This document shows, one piece after another, positions 1 through 44,559 of a DNA stretch of 64,000 nt (position 1 is its first letter; each line of letters opens with the position of its first letter). This DNA comes from Vicugna vicugna (taxonomy: Eukaryota): positions 248,001 through 312,000 of the forward strand of contig MU058217.1 in NCBI GenBank assembly GCA_013265495.1. The letters run 5' to 3'. The notes under the pieces were generated by a model. It was given only the letters and a program-made list of their open reading frames with translations. It was not told the origin of the DNA and searched no databases. A program made the position numbers and the translations under genes.

Positions 1-984
1 CATGGTAGTCAGTAACATGTTTGTGCAGTGGAGATGTGGTTGGGAGCCAGGCTTTCCCACTCTCTACCCTCCCTCCAACGGCTGTTAACCAAACCCACCA
101 TCAACTGCAAGGCCAGCGGGGTGAGGCCGCCCCTTCCGGCCGGGAGCGCCCAGTGAGCCAGGCCCCAGGTGGCTCCTGGCCTGGTCTGAGAAAATGAGTG
201 CGCTTTTAAACACGGCCACCCACAGCAGCCCAAGTGTTTGGGATGGTGCCTCCAGTGAAGGGTGTCTGGGTCCCTGCCTCAACATGTGAGGGTTTCTGAG
301 AGAAGCTGGCTTTTCCGAGGAGAAAGCATTCTCTGCAAATCTTCAGTGGGAGGGCAGGAAGAAGGCAGCCCCAGGGGCTGACCGTTTCTGAGGCTTTAGG
401 CTTTCTGAGGCGCTGTCTCCTGGGTAGGTCTAGGGGAGGCAGACCACCGCGTTCACAGATGAGAAGGCGTGCTCTCAGGGGGTTCGGGTAAACGGAGTCC
501 TCGGACGTTCTTTTCCCTCCAGCCTGCCACCTGCAAGGGCTGTGGCACTGATGACATTTGTAGGGTGGGGCTTTGAGGATGCTGTTGGAGTACGGAAGTT
601 GTATGGCTGTTGATGAGCGGCCAGACTGTTGCCGCGTGCTTTTGGGGGTTTTGTATCAGGGGCCCACCAGCTCCCAAGTCTTCCCCTGTGAGAATGGGTC
701 TCAGTGGTTTCTGAGATGCCAGTGCTGTGCCCTGGGTGGGAGGGCTGCCGAGCTTCTTGCTGGGGTGCTGGTGGCACCCAGGAATACCTGGCCTTCTGAG
801 ACTCCGTTTGGAAAAATGGGGCTGGAGACGCGTGGGAGAGGTTGACGAGTAGTGAGCCTCCGTGGTACATGGGCAGATCTTCACTACTACCTCCTTCCTG
901 TATTTTCTTAATTAATAAACTGTCCTGTGGCTGCACAGGTTGGACAGAATATTTTAAAACAGATCTGTCGACTCAAAAATATTG

Positions 985-1235
985 AATGATAACAGACAGC
1001 GTTTACATGGCACTCGGTATTTTTCAGGCACAGCTGCAGACACGGCACCGTTATTTAGTCATTCATTCCATCCTCACAACAAACCTGAGTACTGCCAGGC
1101 CTGTTTCACCTATGGGGAAACCGAGTCACAGAGAAGTGAGATCATTTAGTCAGGATCACCCAGTTCGTGACGGGTCTGTCCCCAGGCCATCTCTCTCCAG
1201 AGCCCGTGATCTGAACTGCTGGTGGCTGTATTGAG
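985..1235 (-). mobile_element. MIR relic (duplicate at ~5846-6096)
   Basis: MIR-core-like ATCCTCACAACAAACCTGAG...GGGGAAACCGAGTCACAGAGAAGTGAG. Confidence 0.65.
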
Positions 1236-2449
1236 TCCACCCCATTCCCACGGAGGGGAGTGGAACCACTGCAGCTACATGCCTCCCCCTCCCAGCTGCC
1301 CATCTGTGCAGCTATGGAGGTGTGGAGGGCTCCAAGCAGTTTTGTAGTGTCATCTTCGTGGTCTGGGGATTGAATCCTGGTCTGGCTGAACCATTTGGGG
1401 GAGACTCAGTAGTGAGACAGGAAGGAAAGAAAGTGTTGGTGCCTCATCTTCGCAAGTTCCCCCCACCCTTGCGGGGAAGTGAGAATGGAAGGGTTGCCGT
1501 CAGGGCAGCGGCTGGGCCAGCTCCTGGTGGCTGCCCCCTCTCGTTGGTGGCTGTGTCATCCGCTGGTGCTGGGGGCCAGCACGGGTCCAGCTGGCTCACA
1601 GCTGGATGCAGAGCGGGAGGAGACGGTGGGTCCAGAGGCCAAAAGACTGTCAGGGATGTGCACGTGCATCAGAGGCCGGCCTTGACTCTGCTCCAGACAG
1701 GAAGCGCCTTCGCGCTGGGCTCTCTTGCTGTTCCCTGGTGGTTAGCACCGCTGAGAACAGAGCTCCAAGTTGTGGTCAGAGACGTGAGCTGCCAAACGGA
1801 TTTTGTCCCCAGACAGCCCAAGTGTGACATCCTCCCCTGTCATTCTCTGCCCCCGGGCCACCGTGGCCCGGAGGTGAGCAAAGCTGGACAGGAGGAATCA
1901 AAACCTGCCTGATGGAGGCACTCAGAGCAGAGGAGGTGAGGTGGCGGCCGACAGGCCCACTCCGCACCGGGGCTGGCGCTTCTTGAGAAGTTGTTGGGTC
2001 TGAGTGTGGAGCCCACGTTAGTCCAGAGGCCCTAAAACCAGTCAGTGCTTTGGGACGGCGACCGGGCAAGGTGTGAGGACAGTCTGTGGGCAGCTTCTGG
2101 AGAAACCACTGAGGTGGTCATGGTGATGATGGGGGCAGGAGGTGTGAAGCAGGAGGGAGGAAGGGGGACCGGGGGCCTGGACCAAGAATCAGACACTCTT
2201 GGGAGGATCCCACATTGTGATTAGCATGCTTGCAGGAATCCTAGGAGACAGTGAGTCTCTGCTCATTCGTAACCCTTCTGGAATTAGTCGTCATCTTAAC
2301 GTCTGTGTTCCTGAATGAAATGTGTAATAAAATGTAACAAAATATAAAATAAAACGGTCTCTTGAGAGTGGGAGCGCCTAGGGCTGGCCTAGGTCAGCAC
2401 CCGATAACTGAGGGAGGGAGGGAGGAAGGAGGGAGAGGGACAGAAGAGA

Positions 2450-2752
2450 TAGAAAGATCTTCGGCTATGTCTTAGAAGCAACTGCAACATTTTGGACTAT
2501 TTAAAATTGCTACCCACCCTCCCAGTTTACCCTGAACTCCTGATTCGCCTTACCAAATTCTGTTTTTTCTTCTTCCATCACCTTCTAAAATTCTTCACAG
2601 TTTGCTTCCTTATAGTTTTGTTGTCTGCTCCCCCCACCCCCTGCTGGAACCAGTGCTCCCTTCTGTTTTGATGACGGAAGTGCCCCAAGTATCTAGGAAC
2701 TGTGCCTGACACTTGGTAGGTGCTCACTAAATATTTGTCGAATGAATAAATG
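2450..2752 (+). mobile_element. L2 3' end relic (duplicate at ~7311-7613)
   Basis: GTGCCTGACACTTGGTAGGTGCTCACTAAATATTTGTCGAATGAATAAATG is a typical L2 terminus. Confidence 0.7.
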
Positions 2753-3299
2753 GATCAGAGTGCCCGGGAGGTACTTGGCTAGTGCCACCTGTCCCTGGGA
2801 ATCGGCTTGCAGTAGACCTTTGAGCACGCTGTCCCATGGGAGGGGCAGCTTTGCGTCCCTGGGAGGCGCCCGCACAGTCTGGCCGCCTGCCCTCGGCCTG
2901 CTTGGTCCTCGTGATTCACTGGGCCCCGGAGGTGGGACCACGCGGAGCCTGCCCGACGGCCCAGGCACACAGAGGCTTTCCAGGATTGGTGGGCAGGACA
3001 GGGAGGGATGAGCAGGCAGGGAGTAGAGCTGTCCGCAGCTCAGTATTCTGGAGACTGTGGTCGGACCACATTCCTGAAACCTGCCCTCTCCCCCTCCCAT
3101 CCCCACAACTCAGATCCCACCCTCTGGGCTGTGAGAAGTGGAAAGAGGGCTAAAGTGAAGTCCCTGTTTACTCAGCCTCTATCTTGTCTTGCAGGCTGGT
3201 GCCCAACCCACAGAATTAATCTGGGTCCTCATGGCTGTCTCCACTGGGGGCTGCCCCTGGGCCCAGACTTCCATTGCTATCAGTTTCAAGTCCAGACTC

Positions 3300-3990
3300 C
3301 ACTTCTCAGCCTGGTGGTTGGGCCCAGCCCAGACCCCTGGCAGCCCCCACTCCAAGGCCACTTCCAGTCTTTGCTCAGTTTTACCCTTGACCTCCTGACC
3401 CATGTCCAGTTGCCTACTTGGCATCCCCCATCAACCTGTCCAAACGTCATGCCACCCGCGGCCTCTCCAACTCAGTTAGTGGCCGGTCTGTTCCTCCAGC
3501 TGCTCCAGTCCAAACCCTTGACCCCCTCTCCCCACCTGTCCTTTCCTTCGCATCCCATGTTCAGCTTGTCAGGTAAGCATGATGGGTTCCTCCTTCCAAA
3601 TAGAATTTTAAAGAATCCAGCCACTCCTGGCCACCCTCACCACTGTCATCTTGCTCTGAGCCACAGCCACCATCACGGTGCCCTCAGACTAGGGTGGTCA
3701 CCTCTTGACGGCTCTGCCAGACTCCCGTCTGTTCTTTTCAGATAATGGGTCCTATCACTCTGTCCCTCAGAACATCCCGATGGGCCCCCAGGACGGCAGA
3801 GTGAAAGCTGAAGAAGTCCTCACGGTGGCCGACAGGGTGCCACAGGATCGGGATGGTGACGGCCCTGACCTCGGGGCCGCTCCTCCCTCGCCCCTCGCTC
3901 CTTCCTCTCCGGCGGGTTGGCCTCTCTGGTGTCCCTTCAGATGCCCCAGGCATGCCTCCCCCTTAAGGCCTTGGCAGCCCACGTGGCTAC
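3300..3990 (+). mobile_element. L2 internal relic (duplicate at ~8180-8870)
   Basis: Pyrimidine-rich L2-like blocks such as CCAGTCCAAACCCTTG and CCTCCTTCCAAATAG...ATCCAGCCACTCC. Confidence 0.55.
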
Positions 3991-3997
3991 CTCCCGG

Positions 3998-4445
3998 CAG
4001 TGGGCTGAGTAATGGTCCCCCATAGGCGCCCAGAGCCTGTCAATGTTACCGTATAAGGCACACAGGGTTTTGCAGATGTGATTAAATTAAGGCTCTTGAA
4101 TGGAGGAGATGATTTTGGATTACTCAGGTGGGCGCCTCGTAAGGACACGGGTCCTTCTAAGAGGGAGGGAGGAGGGTCAGGGTCAGGAGCAGATGTGAGA
4201 ACAGAAGCAAGAGGTTGAGGATGTGAGGAAGGGGCCACGAGCCAAGGAATGCGGGCAGCTCCTAGAAGCTGGAAGAGGCAGGGTTGCCGGTTCTCTTCTA
4301 GGGTCTCTAGAAGGAACCGGCCCTGCCGATGCCTTGACGGTAATCCAGGGAGACCCGTTTTAGACTTTGGGAGGCAGGAAATTTGTGTTGTAATTTTGAG
4401 CCTCTTAGCCCGTGATGGTTTGGTACAGCGACCACTGGAGACCAG
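3998..4445 (+). mobile_element. MaLR solo LTR, MLT1C/D-like (duplicate at ~8878-9325)
   Basis: TTTGCAGATGTGATTAAATTAAGG and GGGGCCACGAGCCAAGGAATGCGGGCAGCTCCTAGAAGCTGGAAGAGGC are MLT1 hallmarks. Confidence 0.85.
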
Positions 4446-4570
4446 GCCATTCTTTCACCTGCTTTGAGTCTCCTGCTCACTCTTTCTCCTGCTCTGATCT
4501 TTCTCCGTCACTCCACCTTCCAACCGAACCGGATGATTTACCAGTCTCACGGGCCGCGTGTCTGCCCTCA

Positions 4571-4861: not shown

Positions 4862-7800
4862 CATGGTAGTCAGTAACATGTTTGTGCAGTGGAGATGTGG
4901 TTGGGAGCCAGGCTTTCCCACTCTCTACCCTCCCTCCAACGGCTGTTAACCAAACCCACCATCAACTGCAAGGCCAGCGGGGTGAGGCCGCCCCTTCCGG
5001 CCGGGAGCGCCCAGTGAGCCAGGCCCCAGGTGGCTCCTGGCCTGGTCTGAGAAAATGAGTGCGCTTTTAAACACGGCCACCCACAGCAGCCCAAGTGTTT
5101 GGGATGGTGCCTCCAGTGAAGGGTGTCTGGGTCCCTGCCTCAACATGTGAGGGTTTCTGAGAGAAGCTGGCTTTTCCGAGGAGAAAGCATTCTCTGCAAA
5201 TCTTCAGTGGGAGGGCAGGAAGAAGGCAGCCCCAGGGGCTGACCGTTTCTGAGGCTTTAGGCTTTCTGAGGCGCTGTCTCCTGGGTGGGTCTAGGGGAGG
5301 CAGACCACCGCGTTCACAGATGAGAAGGCGTGCTCTCAGGGGGTTCGGGTAAACGGAGTCCTCGGACGTTCTTTTCCCTCCAGCCTGCCACCTGCAAGGG
5401 CTGTGGCACTGATGACATTTGTAGGGTGGGGCTTTGAGGATGCTGTTGGAGTACGGAAGTTGTATGGCTGTTGATGAGCGGCCAGACTGTTGCCGCGTGC
5501 TTTTGGGGGTTTTGTATCAGGGGCCCACCAGCTCCCAAGTCTTCCCCTGTGAGAATGGGTCTCAGTGGTTTCTGAGATGCCAGTGCTGTGCCCTGGGTGG
5601 GAGGGCTGCCGAGCTTCTTGCTGGGGTGCTGGTGGCACCCAGGAATACCTGGCCTTCTGAGACTTCGTTTGGAAAAATGGGGCTGGAGACGCGTGGGAGA
5701 GGTTGACGAGTAGTGAGCCTCCGTGGTACATGGGCAGATCTTCACTACTACCTCCTTCCTGTATTTTCTTAATTAATAAACTGACCTGTGGCTGCACAGG
5801 TTGGACAGAATATTTTAAAACAGATCTGTTGACTCAAAAATATTGAATGATAACAGACAGCGTTTACATGGCACTTGGTATTTTTCAGGCACAGCTGCAG
5901 ACACGGCACCTTTATTTAGTCATTCATTCCATCCTCACAACAAACCTGAGTACTGCCAGGCCTGTTTCACCTATGGGGAAACCGAGTCACAGAGAAGTGA
6001 GATCATTTAGTCAGGGTCACCCAGTTCGTGACGGGTCTGTCCCCAGGCCATCTCTCTCCAGAGCCCGTGATCTGAACTGCTGGTGGCTGTATTGAGTCCA
6101 CCCCATTCCCACGGAGGGGAGTGGAACCACTGCAGCTACATGCCTCCCCCTCCCAGCTGCCCATCTGTGCAGCTATGGAGGTGTGGAGGGCTCCAAGCAG
6201 TTTTGTAGTGTCATCTTCGTGGTCTGGGGATTGAATCCTGGTCTGGCTGAACCATTTGGGGGAGACTCAGTAGTGAGACAGGAAGGAAAGAAAGTGTTGG
6301 TGCCTCATCTTCGCAAGTTCCCCCCACCCTTGCGGGGAAGTGAGAATGGAAGGGTTGCCGTCAGGGCAGCGGCTGGGCCAGCTCCTGGTGGCTGCCCCCT
6401 CTCGTTGGTGGCTGTGTCATCCGCTGGTGCTGGGGGCCAGCACGGGTCCAGCTGGCTCACAGCTGGATGCAGAGCGGGAGGAGACGGTGGGTCCAGAGGC
6501 CAAAAGACTGTCAGGGATGTGCACGTGCATCAGAGGCCGGCCTTGACTCTGCTCCAGACAGGAAGCGCCTTCGCGCTGGGCTCTCTTGCTGTTCCCTGGT
6601 GGTTAGCACCGCTGAGAACAGAGCTCCAAGTTGTGGTCAGAGACGTGAGCTGCCAAACGGATTTTGTCCCCAGACAGCCCAAGTGTGACATCCTCCCCTG
6701 TCATTCTCTGCCCCCGGGCCACCGTGGCCCGGAGGTGAGCAAAGCTGGACAGGAGGAATCAAAACCTGCCTGATGGAGGCACTCAGAGCAGAGGAGGTGA
6801 GGTGGCGGCCGACAGGCCCACTCCGCACCGGGGCTGGCGCTTCTTGAGAAGTTGTTGGGTCTGAGTGTGGAGCCCACGTTAGTCCAGAGGCCCTAAAACC
6901 AGTCAGTGCTTTGGGACGGCGACCGGGCAAGGTGTGAGGACAGTCTGTGGGCAGCTTCTGGAGAAACCACTGAGGTGGTCATGGTGATGATGGGGGCAGG
7001 AGGTGTGAAGCAGGAGGGAGGAAGGGGGACCGGGGGCCTGGACCAAGAATCAGACACTCTTGGGAGGATCCCACATTGTGATTAGCATGCTTGCAGGAAT
7101 CCTAGGAGACAGTGAGTCTCTGCTCATTCGTAACCCTTCTGGAATTAGTCGTCATCTTAACGTCTGTGTTCCTGAATGAAATGTGTAATAAAATGTAACA
7201 AAATATAAAATAAAACGGTCTCTTGAGAGTGGGAGCGCCTAGGGCTGGCCTAGGTCAGCACCCGATAACTGAGGGAGGGAGGGAGGAAGGAGGGAGAGGG
7301 ACAGAAGAGATAGAAAGATCTTCGGCTATGTCTTAGAAGCAACTGCAACATTTTGGACTATTTAAAATTGCTACCCACCCTCCCAGTTTACCCTGAACTC
7401 CTGATTCGCCTTACCAAGTTCTGTTTTTTCTTCTTCCATCACCTTCTAAAATTCTTCACAGTTTGCTTCCTTATAGTTTTGTTGTCTGCTCCCCCCACCC
7501 CCTGCTGGAACCAGTGCTCCCTTCTGTTTTGATGACGGAAGTGCCCCAAGTATCTAGGAACTGTGCCTGACACTTGGTAGGTGCTCACTAAATATTTGTC
7601 GAATGAATAAATGGATCAGAGTGCCCGGGAGGTACTTGGCTAGTGCCACCTGTCCCTGGGAATCGGCTTGCAGTAGACCTTTGAGCACGCTGTCCCATGG
7701 GAGGGGCAGCTTTGCGTCCCTGGGAGGCGCCCGCACAGTCTGGCCGCCTGCCCTCGGCCTGCTTGGTCCTCGTGATTCACTGGGCCCCGGAGGTGGGACC

Positions 7801-9465
7801 ACGCGGAGCCTGCCCGACGGCCCAGGCACACAGAGGCTTTCCAGGATTGGTGGGCAGGACAGGGAGGGATGAGCAGGCAGGGAGTAGAGCTGTCCGCAGC
7901 TCAGTATTCTGGAGACTGTGGTCGGACCACATTCCTGAAACCTGCCCTCTCCCCCTCCCATCCCCACAACTCAGATCCCACCCTCTGGGCTGTGAGAAGT
8001 GGAAAGGTGCCTGGTTGAGCAATTGAGGGCTAAAGTGAAGTCCCTGTTTACTCAGCCTCTATCTTGTCTTGCAGGCTGGTGCCCAACCCACAGAATTAAT
8101 CTGGGTCCTCATGGCTGTCTCCACTGGGGGCTGCCCCTGGGCCCAGACTTCCATTGCTATCAGTTTCAAGTCCAGACTCCACTTCTCAGCCTGGTGGTTG
8201 GGCCCAGCCCAGACCCCTGGCAGCCCCCACTCCAAGGCCACTTCCAGTCTTTGCTCAGTTTTACCCTTGACCTCCTGACCCATGTCCAGTTGCCTACTTG
8301 GCATCCCCCATCAACCTGTCCAAACGTCATGCCACCCGCGGCCTCTCCAACTCAGTTAGTGGCCGGTCTGTTCCTCCAGCTGCTCCAGTCCAAACCCTTG
8401 ACCCCCTCTCCCCACCTGTCCTTTCCTTCGCATCCCATGTTCAGTTTGTCAGGTAAGCATGATGGGTTCCTCCTTCCAAATAGAATTTTAAAGAATCCAG
8501 CCACTCCTGGCCACCCTCACCACTGTCATCTTGCTCTGAGCCACAGCCACCATCACGGTGCCCTCAGACTAGGGTGGTCACCTCTTGACGGCTCTGCCAG
8601 ACTCCCGTCTGTTCTTTTCAGATAATGGGTCCTATCACTCTGTCCCTCAGAACATCCCGATGGGCCCCCAGGACGGCAGAGTGAAAGCTGAAGAAGTCCT
8701 CACGGTGGCCGACAGGGTGCCACAGGATCGGGATGGTGACGGCCCTGACCTCGGGGCCGCTCCTCCCTCGCCCCTCGCTCCTTCCTCTCCGGCGGGTTGG
8801 CCTCTCTGGTGTCCCTTCAGATGCCCCAGGCATGCCTCCCCCTTAAGGCCTTGGCAGCCCACGTGGCTACCTCCCGGCAGTGGGCTGAGTAATGGTCCCC
8901 CATAGGCGCCCAGAGCCTGTCAATGTTACCGTATAAGGCACACAGGGTTTTGCAGATGTGATTAAATTAAGGCTCTTGAATGGAGGAGATGATTTTGGAT
9001 TACTCAGGTGGGCGCCTCGTAAGGACACGGGTCCTTCTAAGAGGGAGGGAGGAGGGTCAGGGTCAGGAGCAGATGTGAGAACAGAAGCAAGAGGTTGAGG
9101 ATGTGAGGAAGGGGCCACGAGCCAAGGAATGCGGGCAGCTCCTAGAAGCTGGAAGAGGCAGGGTTGCCGGTTCTCTTCTAGGGTCTCTAGAAGGAACCGG
9201 CCCTGCCGATGCCTTGACGGTAATCCAGGGAGACCCGTTTTAGACTTTGGGAGGCAGGAAATTTGTGTTGTAATTTTGAGCCTCTTAGCCCGTGATGGTT
9301 TGGTACAGCGACCACTGGAGACCAGGCCATTCTTTCACCTGCTTTGAGTCTCCTGCTCACTCTGCCAGGCCCATCCCTTTCTCCTGCTCTGATCTTTCTC
9401 CGTCACTCCACCTTCCAACCGAACCGGATGATTTACCAGTCTCACGGGCCGCGTGTCTGCCCTCA
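4862..9465. repeat. Tandem segmental duplication, copy 2
   Basis: CATGGTAGTCAGTAACATG recurs at 4862. Homology ends after TCTGCCCTCA (4570/9465), and copy 2 continues into an L2-like 3' end. Confidence 0.97.
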
Positions 9466-12940: not shown

Positions 12941-13288
12941 CAGCACAGCCCAGTAGAACTTTCCACGATGATGGAAATGCTTTTTTGGGCCGTCCAATGT
13001 GGTAGCCACTGACGTGTGAACACTTGAGGTGTAGCTAGTGTATCTGCTGGACTGGGTCTTCAGTTTTTTGGTTTTTGTTAATTTTGGGGGCGGGTGGGTA
13101 GAGATAATTAGGTTTATTTGTGTATTTAATTTTTTTTCATGGAGGTCCTGGGGATTGGACCCAGGACCTTGTGCGTGCTAAGCATGTGCTCTACCACTGA
13201 GCTCTACCCTCCCCTTTCAGTTTTATTTTTAATTAATTTATATTTAAATTTTGTGTGTGTAGTGGCTTCCATATTGGACGGCACAGCT
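12941..13288. mobile_element. MER3-like hAT-Charlie relic interrupted by a SINE
   Basis: CCAGTAGAACTTTCCACGATGATGGAAATG...GTCCAATGTGGTAGCCACT...ATATTGGACGGCACAG. Confidence 0.8.
13064..13214 (-). mobile_element. tRNA-derived camelid SINE (Vic-1-like, long-tail form)
   Basis: The minus strand reads GGGGAGGGTAGAGCTCAGTGGTAGAGC...GGTCCAATCCCCAG (A/B boxes), followed by an AAATAAACCTAATTA tail. TTCAGTTTT flanks both sides as a TSD. Confidence 0.9.
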
Positions 13289-23355: not shown

Positions 23356-23507
23356 TTTTTTTTAATGTTTATTTTTATTTATTTATTTTCTGGGGGCAGG
23401 GAAGTAATTAGGTTTGCTTATTTATTTTTAATGGAGGTACTGGGGATTGAACCCAGGACCCCGTGCATGCTAGGCAGGCGCTCTACCACTGAGCTATACC
23501 CACCCCC
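23356..23507 (-). mobile_element. tRNA-derived camelid SINE (Vic-1-like, long-tail form)
   Basis: ATGGAGGTACTGGGGATTGAACCCAGGACC...CTCTACCACTGAGCTATACCC, preceded by a GTAATTAGGTTTGCTTATTTA tail. Confidence 0.92.
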
Positions 23508-33081: not shown

Positions 33082-33241
33082 TTTTATTTAAAATTAAAAA
33101 TATATATATATATTCTCTGATCTGGTTTTTTTTTTTAAGTTGGTGTTTCTTTATTTTTAATGGACATACTGGGGATTGAACCCTGGACCTCAGCATGCTA
33201 AGCACGTGCTCTACTGTTGAGCTATATCCACCCCCTCCACT
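33082..33241 (-). mobile_element. tRNA-derived camelid SINE with 13-bp TSD
   Basis: Head at 33159-33235 with a compound AT-rich tail. TSD GTCCCCTGTTTTA at 33069-33081 and 33242-33254. Confidence 0.9.
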
Positions 33242-38919: not shown

Positions 38920-39631
38920 TAAAAAATTGAAGTATAGTTGATTTACAATGTTGTGTTACTTTCTGGTATGCAGCAGAGTGATTCAGTTATACATATATAC
39001 ATATACATGCTTTTTCATATTCTTTTTTATTATAGATTATTACAGGCTGTTGAATGTAGTTCCCTGTGCTGTACAGTAGGACCTTGTTTATTCTGTGTAT
39101 AGTAGTTTGTATCTGCTAATCTCACACTCCTAATTTATCCCCTCTTCCCCCTTTCATAACTGTAAGTTTATTTTCTATGTCTGAGTCTGTTTCTGTTTTC
39201 TAAATAAGTTCATTTGTATCACTTTTTTAGATTCCACATATAAGTGGTATCACATGATAGTTGTCTTTCTCTGTCTGGCTTACTCCCCTTAGTATGATCA
39301 TCTCTAGGTCCATCCATGCTGCTGTAGATGGCATTATTTGATTCTTTTTTATGGCTGAGTCATAGTCCATTGTATAAATATACCACAATTTCTTTATCCA
39401 ATCATCTGTCAGTGGACACTTAGGTTGCTTCCATGTCTTAGCTATTGTAAATAGTGCTGCGGTAAACATTGGGGTGCATGCATCTTTTTTGAATTAAGAG
39501 TTTCCTCTGGGTCTGTGCTCAGGAGTGGGATTGCTTGATCGTAGGCTAAGCTTATTTTCAGTTTTTAAAGGAATCTCCATACTGTTTTCCATAGTGGCTG
39601 CACCAAACTACCAACCGCATAGGGGGGTTCC
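38920..39631 (-). mobile_element. 5'-truncated L1 with ORF2 C-terminal remnant and 14-bp TSD
   Basis: ORF 39227-39469 (MFTAALFTIAKTWKQPKCP...WIKKLWYIYTM) is the L1 ORF2p C-terminus. TSD CTGCTCAGCATTTT at 38906-38919 and 39632-39645. Confidence 0.95.
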
Positions 39632-42617: not shown

Positions 42618-42770
42618 CTTTTTTAATTGAAGTATAGTTGATTTACAGTATTAATTTCGGGTGTATAACATTAGTGATTCAATATTTCTGTAGATTATAT
42701 TTCACCTCAAGTTATTACAAAAGGATGACTCTGTTTTCCTCTGCTGTACAGTACATCCTTGTTGCTTGTG
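42618..42770 (-). mobile_element. Short L1 3' fragment
   Basis: TTTTAATTGAAGTATAGTTGATTTACA. Degenerate TSD ACCTCACTTTT/ACCCCACTTTT. Confidence 0.85.
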
Positions 42771-42834
42771 AGGACCCCACTTTTGATCTGAATAATCTCA
42801 TGAGGTGACAGCGTCATCATCGATGTTTGTGATT

Positions 42835-43735
42835 TTTTTTCACAGTCCTCTGAATTTTAACACATGCTATAGATTCGTGTAACCACCACCTCAACCCCGG
42901 TGGAGAGCAGTTCCATCACCCCAGGACCCTCCCTCATGCCTCCCTTTCCGTTCAGAGCCTCCCCCAACCTGCCCCTTCATCAACCATCCCCATAGTTTTG
43001 TCTTTTTTGAGAATGTTGACTAAATGGAATCGTACAGGAGGTAACCTTTTGAGACTGGCCTTTTTTTTTTAATGTCCTTATGTTGAATTATTTCGGCCAT
43101 TAGATGACAACAGTATTGGGTTGTCTTTCTTCCTCCCTCGCTTCCTCCCTCCCTTCCACGTTGACTGCCCACTGTGGACCAAGTGCCTCTGGGGAAACAC
43201 ACTGTCACCCAGATTTGGGTGACGGGGCCATCAGCGTGTTAATGGAGGTACTGGGGATTGAATACAGGACCTCATGCATGCTAAGCACGTGCTCTACCAC
43301 TGAGCTGTACCCTCCCCCATGAGACTGGCTTCTTAACATCGTATCTGTGAGATGGTTGCAGGTTGTGGCAATACATCAACAGTGTGTTCCTTTGTGTCTG
43401 TCCTGAGTATTCTATTGCATGGATGTACCACAGTTTGTTCCTCAGTCCCCGTTGAGATCTTTTGGGGTTATTACGGATAAAGCTGCTGTGAACGTTTGTG
43501 TATACGACTTTGTGTGGACCTGTATATTCGTTTCTTTTGGGTGTATATCTAGGAGTGGGACTGCTGGGTCGTATGGTCGGTGTGTTTAGCTTTATAGAAG
43601 ACCGCCAAACTGCTCTCCAGGGTGGCTGCACCATTTTGCATTCCCACCAGCAGTGGCTGAGATGGCCAGTTGCTCTGCATCCTGGCTAGCACCTGGTCCT
43701 GGTCAGTCTTTTACATTTTAGTCTTTCTGGATCAT
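42835..43735 (-). mobile_element. Old L1 (L1MC-like) interrupted by a chimeric SINE insertion
   Basis: GATTCGTGTAACCACCACC, TAAATGGAATCGTACAG and ATCTAGGAGTGGGACTGCTGGGTCGTATGG. ORF 43281-43634 is L1 ORF2-like. Confidence 0.85.
43061..43318 (-). mobile_element. Chimeric SINE retrocopy: tRNA-like head, 170 nt of unrelated sequence, poly(A), within one TSD
   Basis: Head 43241-43318, unrelated segment 43071-43240, T10 at 43061-43070. TSD TGAGACTGGC at 43050-43059 and 43320-43329. Confidence 0.85.
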
Positions 43736-44559
43736 GTCTGATTTTTAAATGTGTAAATGAGTCTCAGAAAGGCTCAGAGTTGTCCGAGGCCCCTGGCCTC
43801 TTGGTGGCTCCGTGAATAACTAGAATCCAGACCTTTTGACTTGATGGCTGTGAGCATTCTGGGTGGTGGCTGTGCCGAGCAGGTTATTTCACATGCCAGA
43901 CTAGAAACCGGTAGCTTCTGTGTGAGACTGGGGGCTCTGAAATATCAGGGCACCTGTGGCAGGGTAAAGGCATATGTCTAGGGACTAAGGAAACAAGGAA
44001 AGTAGAAACAGGAAGTGAGGCAAGAGAAAAGGTGCATATCCTCGACTCACAGAGGTGGGAGGCACTGGGCTCCTTCACCCCCTCATCCCTCCTTATTTTT
44101 AAATCGAGGCTCAGAGAGGGGAAGCAGCTGGCCAAATGTCACACAGCTCACTGGTGCCTCTTGACCCTTTGCATGTGACCCACAGTTGGCAGAAGCCACC
44201 TTGATTTCCAGAAGCATCGTGGGAGTATCCCTGGGGCCACAGGCTGCGTCCCCTTGGTGCTTGAGGAGTAGAGCTTCTGCAGGTTGATACACCTGGTCAA
44301 GATCACTATACTCCCTCGGTGTCTTGGACTCAGGTCTGTTCTGGGTGGGAGCTGGTTTCAGGAAGGAGCTTGTGCCGGGGGCCGTGGCCACAGCTGAAAC
44401 CAGAGCCAGTGACTTCATGGGGTGGAGGCTTATAGGGGACCAGGCCCTTCTCAGGGGTGGTCCCACCCACCCTCGCAGGGGAAACAGTGCAGCTGCCCTG
44501 GAAGGCGGTGGACATGCTTTCCCGATTGCAGAATACTTCTTTCATTTTGAATATCATTT

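Follow-up and report, generated by a model that had tools for sequence, protein, structure and literature searches.

The insertion described here lies on the minus strand of the 64,000-nt stretch of Vicugna vicugna DNA that was analyzed (hereafter, the window). Read along that strand, the locus comprises the flank of an older element, which we take to be an L1, followed by a 15-nt repeat, a single T, a SINE head, 170 nt of additional sequence, a run of ten A residues (A10) and a second copy of the repeat. The features of the locus, listed in this order, are:

43335..43740, minus strand: upstream part of the 3' region of the old host element, presumably an L1 (approximate extent)
43320..43334, minus strand: 5' copy of the target-site duplication (TSD), exact over 10 nt (43320-43329) and 15 nt long with two mismatches
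43319, minus strand: single extra T separating the TSD from the head
43241..43318, minus strand: full-length tRNA-Ala-like SINE head of 78 nt, of the putative vic-1 type
43239..43242: TTAA in which the SINE head ends and which also bounds the MITE family on the right
43157..43238, strand unassigned: 82-nt piggyBac-like MITE, multi-copy in the genome
43129..43156, minus strand: purine-rich low-complexity tract, a 12-nt unit repeated 2.4 times
43071..43128, minus strand: 58-nt segment of low copy number, matched at ~90% identity by one other locus, the candidate donor
43061..43070, minus strand: A10 run, its final four bases overlapping the 15-nt TSD
43050..43064, minus strand: 3' copy of the TSD
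42880..43049, minus strand: downstream part of the 3' region of the old host element, presumably an L1 (approximate extent)

The initial annotation had proposed that a complete tRNA-like SINE head (43318-43241, minus strand) runs straight into 170 nt of further sequence (43240-43071) and then A10, and that the whole unit interrupts an old L1 within one TSD. All of these coordinates hold, and the single TSD was borne out as a 10-nt exact repeat, TGAGACTGGC, at 43050-43059 and 43320-43329, which can be lengthened to 15 nt with 13 of 15 positions matching (43050-43064 versus 43320-43334). The chance of a comparable repeat is ~1e-4 next to an A-run and ~2e-3 anywhere within 260 nt. The endonuclease-like site annotated at the right junction was likewise recovered, the 15-nt TSD bordering TTCTT/AA on the plus strand (43330-43336), in agreement with the YYYY/RR definition of the L1 endonuclease site (PMC4859970). 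The TSD thus falls in the ~7-20 nt range used as a criterion for L1-mediated insertion by target-primed reverse transcription, the target site conforms to that of the L1 endonuclease, and the 3' end carries an A-run, of 10 nt in the window and 11 nt in two sequencing runs. The extra T ahead of the head has counterparts at the SINE heads at 33235 and 57404, which are preceded by one or two extra bases. No second TSD was found around the head alone, the best upstream match to the start of the additional segment being 7 of 12 positions; the later addition of the head in front of an existing retrocopy was ruled out on these grounds, since the absence of a second TSD implies that head and segment came in together. 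Together with the endonuclease-type site and the A-run, the occurrence of one TSD and no other supports the insertion of head and segment by one L1-driven event.

The locus was also evaluated in four sequencing runs aligned to 42960-43258 at 80% likeness, three of DNA (X2, X8 and X10) and one of RNA, drawn from the 14 runs (of 24 rows, under four organism labels) containing 0.87-0.88 of the sampled words. The aligned stretch takes in just 18 nt of the head and ends before the right junction. The left junction (flank, TSD, A-run and extra segment) was found in all three DNA runs with no substitutions and, in two of them, an extra T, and is hence not an assembly error. X10 is identical to the window over this junction and is possibly the source of the window itself, so that independent support comes from two runs. 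The single RNA run had zero cover across 42960-43119, which, like the small shares of sampled words in other RNA runs, is not evidence on expression.

Backing for the assumed L1 identity of the host element comes solely from other genomic copies that align across the flank and TSD (43022-43070), and the empty site was read by joining the two flanks of the host sequence. Within the host region an inverted similarity relates 42892-42912 to 43608-43628, and an A-tailed minus-strand fragment nearby (42620-42790) resembles what we take to be the 3' end of a younger L1. A search for a host gene with three peptides returned no notable Pfam match. All seven SINE heads in the window lie on the minus strand (p 0.016) and AT skew is below zero in 29 of its 32 bins, two biases that an intron of a gene on the plus strand might explain. 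The window also contains a direct duplication of ~4.6 kb (1-4570 versus 4862-9465, 99.07% identity), truncated by the window start, with a spacer of ~290 nt between the copies that opens with a stretch similar to 38925-39009; it may be a recent tandem duplication or an assembly artefact.

The head scores 38.3 bits against the Rfam tRNA model, for which the cut-off is 29, and ARAGORN calls tRNA-Ala(AGC) for two of its sister heads. SINE heads were located in the window at 13215, 23507, 33235, 35702, 43318, 57404 and 59517; five of the six other copies are full, and the head at 43318 is 82.5-88.5% identical to these. The B box reported as mutated is indeed so, with GG replaced by TA at head positions 55-56. 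Five of 74 well-defined columns set this head apart from the others (6.8%, CI 2-15%), the other SINE copies diverging by 6.8-12.2%. SINEBase describes vic-1 as a simple tRNA-derived SINE of camels (PMC3531059), and the insertion shares with it a multi-copy, ~78-nt tRNA-Ala-like head with A and B boxes (the B box being the mutated one), a TSD and an A-rich end. The name vic-1, as applied to these heads, is a provisional assignment. The point of departure from vic-1 is the position of the tail, which adjoins the head in vic-1 and in six of the six other copies in the window; at 43318 that tail is absent, and 170 nt intervene between the head and the A-rich end.

The additional 170 nt (43240-43071) contain no TTTT, no AATAAA and no ATTAAA. 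The first two of these absences had been put forward in the initial annotation, and both stand as observations; the lack of TTTT, however, is weightless as evidence, since 87% of shuffled sequences lack it as well (P 0.87), and it was rejected as an argument. The same tetramer is missing from 2,207 of 3,755 minus-strand windows of 170 nt. No second copy of the 170 nt occurs in the window besides low-complexity matches. The initial annotation described the sequence as unlike the other SINE tails and the surrounding element; its first half proved to belong to another repeat family. An Rfam scan of 43000-43400 returned the tRNA as the sole significant match by E-value, so the extra segment corresponds to no known RNA family; matches to SL1, mir-150 and SAM (E 2.4-9.8) were dismissed as chance. 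High depth at 43120-43159, over the purine-rich tract, was set aside as low-complexity matching.

The first half of the segment has the architecture of a short DNA transposon. Its terminal inverted repeats (43157-43169 and 43226-43238) pair at 10 of 13 positions, with a chance probability of 0.018, or 0.004 when the terminal four bases are required to be exact, for a repeat length picked after looking. A 20-nt palindrome with 8-bp arms (43204-43223) lies 2 nt inside the right terminal repeat, and the 82 nt fold into one long stem with paired ends (DNA fold z -3.41). The summed depth over 43201-43243 climbed to 1075, 1313 and 1291 in the three DNA runs, a single contig corresponding to 10-11, which amounts to ~100 copy-equivalents at 80% likeness or more, depth not being a copy number. 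Aligned records show loose ends at 43240-43243 in at least 31 of 152, 38 of 164 and 34 of 134 cases in the DNA runs, and at 43242-43246 in at least 16 of 25 in the RNA run. The sequences beyond these right-side ends agree with each other at 0.41-0.59, about as unrelated flanks do (0.38-0.54), and hence the family stops there, on the TTAA at 43239-43242. Among left-side loose ends the agreement is 0.69-0.83. Shifted by 1 nt, the consensus of these ends fits the window at 24 of 30 positions (by eye), so the family runs on leftwards from them. A left boundary near 43157 would fit the short pieces covering 43160-43197, where each DNA run contributes one or two extra contigs and the listed pieces are at most 43 nt long. 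No piece longer than 49 nt other than that of this locus was found over the MITE among the pieces listed in any run.

Several features of piggyBac MITEs were thus found, namely ~13-nt terminal repeats, a palindrome inside one of them and dispersed copies ending at TTAA, the last at the right end only; the left flank, in contrast, reads CTTC rather than TTAA, and the element is therefore classed as piggyBac-like only. MER85 and the T. ni piggyBac target TTAA, and their 13-bp repeats are accompanied by a palindrome lying 3 bp further in (PMC3459987). The element shares with their ends the 13-nt terminal inverted repeats, the internal palindrome and the TTAA boundary, and differs from them in its 82-nt length, its 2-nt rather than 3-nt spacer, its 20-nt palindrome and the one missing TTAA. 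Four piggyBac MITE families are reported per camelid genome (PMC8605555), and the 82-nt MITE may be one of them. The literature surveyed, with subscription papers mostly outside its scope, holds no account of an 82-nt MITE of this kind or of a mammalian SINE-MITE composite; the family may be uncatalogued, although it may well be catalogued already, given that Dfam and Repbase were not part of the comparison. No second copy was found in the window. Motif scans for the element returned 21 metagenome matches, all 21 unrelated (5-12 of 36 downstream positions match), three prokaryote matches, all three unrelated and set against ~1 expected by chance, and none in viral sequences. The listed pieces, chosen at 80% or more, differ from the window copy at 5-7 of ~43 positions, while a loose-end agreement of ~0.82 would suggest an older family; whether the MITE predates the SINE may thus be read either way. 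It is present in RNA contigs as well. Four adjacent differences at 43179-43182 are the exact reverse complement of the loose-end consensus, possibly a 4-nt micro-inversion, and would help to recognize the donor copy. Another MITE copy (43193-43241; in an RNA record, from 43189) has the same 1-nt deletion near 43201 as the window copy, and sits mid-contig at a locus distinct from the partner of the 3' segment described below.

The 3' part of the insertion has a single counterpart elsewhere. In X2 and X8, positions 43060-43128 have a gap-free alignment to one other contig (1726 nt long in X2, 1727 nt in X8), with 62 of 69 positions matching, and in X10 positions 43064-43116 align at 47 of 53. 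A G to A change at window position 43095 is common to the three runs. The chance of such a match is below 1e-9 per genome. The alignment continues into the A-run, and A10 may consequently be a genomic A-run that was used for priming, since the partner aligns through it. Both TSD mismatches (43060-43062) fall where the partner still aligns. The RNA-templated 3' end may extend through the A-run and one base more, which would leave a true TSD of 10 nt, a reading based on that one base. Within the 58-nt segment, RNA folding also yields a second small hairpin with 6-bp arms (43105-43125). Under published criteria for SINE 3' transduction (bioRxiv 2024.04.29.591526), the locus has, within its TSD, the requisite spacing of more than 70 nt from the end of the SINE to the A-tract (170 nt), and a segment mappable to another locus for 43060-43128 only, at ~90% in three of three DNA runs. 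Two further criteria call for a SINE of the same family immediately upstream at the source, a position that the partner contig stops short of, and for a TTTT past the segment at the source with none within it; the segment indeed has none, as most shuffled sequences do not. The 3' transduction put forward in the initial annotation is supported in part, namely in that one retrotransposition event brought in foreign sequence and that the 3' 69 nt have a single other locus. The differences from the partner (7 of 69, or 10%; pair CI 4-20%) correspond to ~5% per lineage, and the divergences of head and segment fit, within wide intervals, one event roughly as old as the remaining SINE copies.

The partner contig stops 61 nt (X2 and X8) or 47 nt (X10) beyond the match. 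Counted from 43128 and assuming no indels, 61 nt would reach ~32 nt into the MITE, and in X2 and X8, two of the three runs, the contig would appear to have broken on entering the repeat. Among the listed pieces of all runs, none connects the partner with either the MITE or a SINE head. Extra cover at 43250-43258 amounts to 8.8 in X2, 11.6 in the RNA run and none in X10, and could come from any SINE copy; in X8 the depth there is 0, even the head-bearing piece of this locus being missing. Each run additionally yielded one or two short pieces at the A-run or the purine tract, which are probably low-complexity matches.

The number of partners bears on the suggestion that the insertion might represent a many-copy composite SINE subfamily. 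Just one partner was found per DNA run, a count that, across three whole contig sets, speaks against such a subfamily. A small composite family, in which the partner is a sister that has an A-tail and a TSD of its own and both derive from a third locus, the source, would account for an alignment that continues through the A-run, as a sister's tail would do the same; more than one partner per run over 43071-43128 would then be expected among contig sets totaling ~2,000 million letters, and we regard this scenario as improbable. Still harder to sustain is an origin without any transduction, in which the MITE jumped in place into the TTAA of an ordinary SINE and the rest of the segment is its decayed A-rich tail. 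TTAA at the head-tail boundary is common (three of the six other SINE copies in the window), false Alu transductions have proved to be decayed tails (bioRxiv 2024.04.29.591526), and the last 29 nt (43065-43093) are 84% identical to 23356-23384, where the tail of the 23507 SINE ends. That likeness has a p of 0.003 with the A-run included; without the A-run, however, it falls to 0.06, and it is absent for four of five tails. A late MITE, moreover, should retain both TTAAs and be near its family, whereas this one differs from the loose-end consensus at 6 of 30 positions (by eye), and chance falls far short of explaining the match of the 58 nt to another locus. We therefore consider in-place insertion highly improbable.

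The reading that we favor, with a probability of roughly 0.5, is Pol III read-through of a tail-less SINE-MITE donor, followed by priming of L1 ORF2p at a downstream genomic A-run. The candidate donor would carry a vic-1-type head already abutting the piggyBac-like MITE at the common TTAA, either because the SINE had inserted tail-less at the TT/AA of the MITE or because the MITE had jumped into the TTAA of the SINE, the displaced A-tail decaying into the purine tract. Pol III, starting at the A and B boxes of the head, would have read through the MITE, the purine tract and the flank towards the next T-run. With no A-tail beside the head, ORF2p would have primed at the next genomic A-run and the 170 nt would have been carried along, one L1-driven target-primed reverse transcription copying a single RNA into the TTCTT/AA site of the presumed old L1. 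The inserted copy would later have decayed, with its B box broken. The single TSD, the endonuclease-type site, the A-run, the MITE boundary at the junction and the one 3' partner are direct observations; the Pol III origin, the union of head and MITE at the donor, the terminator and the order of events are inferred from them. Read-through of a tail-less donor explains why the head has no tail, why AATAAA is missing and why the partner has an A-run, and a genomic A-run without AATAAA is consistent with internal priming on a read-through RNA. Transcripts of Alu-type SINEs end at a downstream TTTT, Pol III reading into the flank (PMC4859970), and tail-less tRNA retrocopies with TSDs exist (PMC2912911). 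The prior for such an event is nonetheless low, as a survey of 118,489 full-length AluY elements yielded 633 candidates, 24 of them with possible sources and none confirmed (bioRxiv 2024.04.29.591526). The CTTC at the left end of the MITE, where TTAA would be expected, also leaves room for a second junction there, which would count against read-through. The listed pieces weigh against it as well, in that none ties the partner to the MITE or a head and no long second piece covers the MITE.

The template switch that the initial annotation had offered as its own alternative was weighed as the main rival, and we hold it to be a plausible if less probable explanation. ORF2p would have primed on the A-run of a transcript of the donor region, copied 170 nt and switched to vic-1 RNA at ATTAA, the cDNA end pairing with these 4-5 nt at the end of the head, which would then have been copied to its 5' end; in a variant, a second switch at the left end of the MITE would bring the templates to three. 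The tail-less join with 4-5 nt common to both sides fits this account, as does the long stem formed by the MITE. Chimeras of this class, of which 113 Alu/L1 cases are given for human (bioRxiv 2025.02.02.635956), are recognized by a complete small RNA at the 5' end, by parts in one orientation and by a single TSD; these traits are present here, although read-through predicts them too. No SINE head was seen at the partner locus in the aligned runs, as a switch would predict, but this absence may be an effect of the data, X8 having missed the head-bearing piece of the locus under study. The account also requires a transcript from a locus with no poly(A) signal, AATAAA being absent and the A-run already present at the partner, and the RNA run gave no cover over 42960-43119, which in one run is no proof. 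Finally, a switch must happen to hit the end of a rare MITE, whereas transposon insertion at TTAA yields that boundary directly.

Taken in the context of known systems, the insertion is a chimeric retroposon whose general type is known and whose cargo is unusual. Like Alu 3' transductions, of which earlier examples comprise one Alu monomer case (Kojima) and AluSx-WaluSat (Hoyt), both cited in bioRxiv 2024.04.29.591526, it joins a Pol III SINE to downstream sequence in one TSD; unlike them, it has a tRNA-derived head, a cargo that includes a DNA-transposon MITE and a source SINE that is a candidate only. L1 transductions are common (PMC13756887, PMC13141329) and usually show two homopolymers and the TSD of the source (PMC4859970), whereas a single A-run and no source TSD are present here. 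With Alu/L1, U6/L1 and related chimeras it shares an endonuclease site, a single TSD, parts in one orientation and a 5' end that consists of a complete small Pol III RNA; its 3' part, in contrast, is a MITE with low-copy flank and not an L1 or a known mRNA end. The chimera is real, a decayed one-off that shows no sign of function and is probably inert.

Very few SINE 3' transductions have been confirmed in the literature: Pol III transcripts of SINEs routinely enter the flank, yet new copies almost never carry it. A case with an identified source would show the conditions under which SINE transduction takes place, namely no usable A-tail at the source and an A-run downstream, and a tail-less source with a downstream A-run would serve as a search rule for other simple SINEs. 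A wider reading, which we regard as rather doubtful, is that vic-1 activity overlapped a piggyBac invasion of the camelids, and that a MITE landing in the TTAA at the head end gave a Pol III-transcribed composite that was retrotransposed by L1 together with its flank. Few late DNA-transposon transfers are known in mammals other than bats, and the main text of the study in question mentions neither "camel" nor "Vicugna" (PMC10162687); if the MITE is as young as vic-1, camelids would be added to the few mammals besides bats in which DNA transposons were active late. If the composite reading is true, the locus would document a cut-and-paste element spread by copy-and-paste under a SINE promoter, and would represent both a source-verified SINE 3' transduction and the initial stage in the acquisition of a body by a simple SINE.
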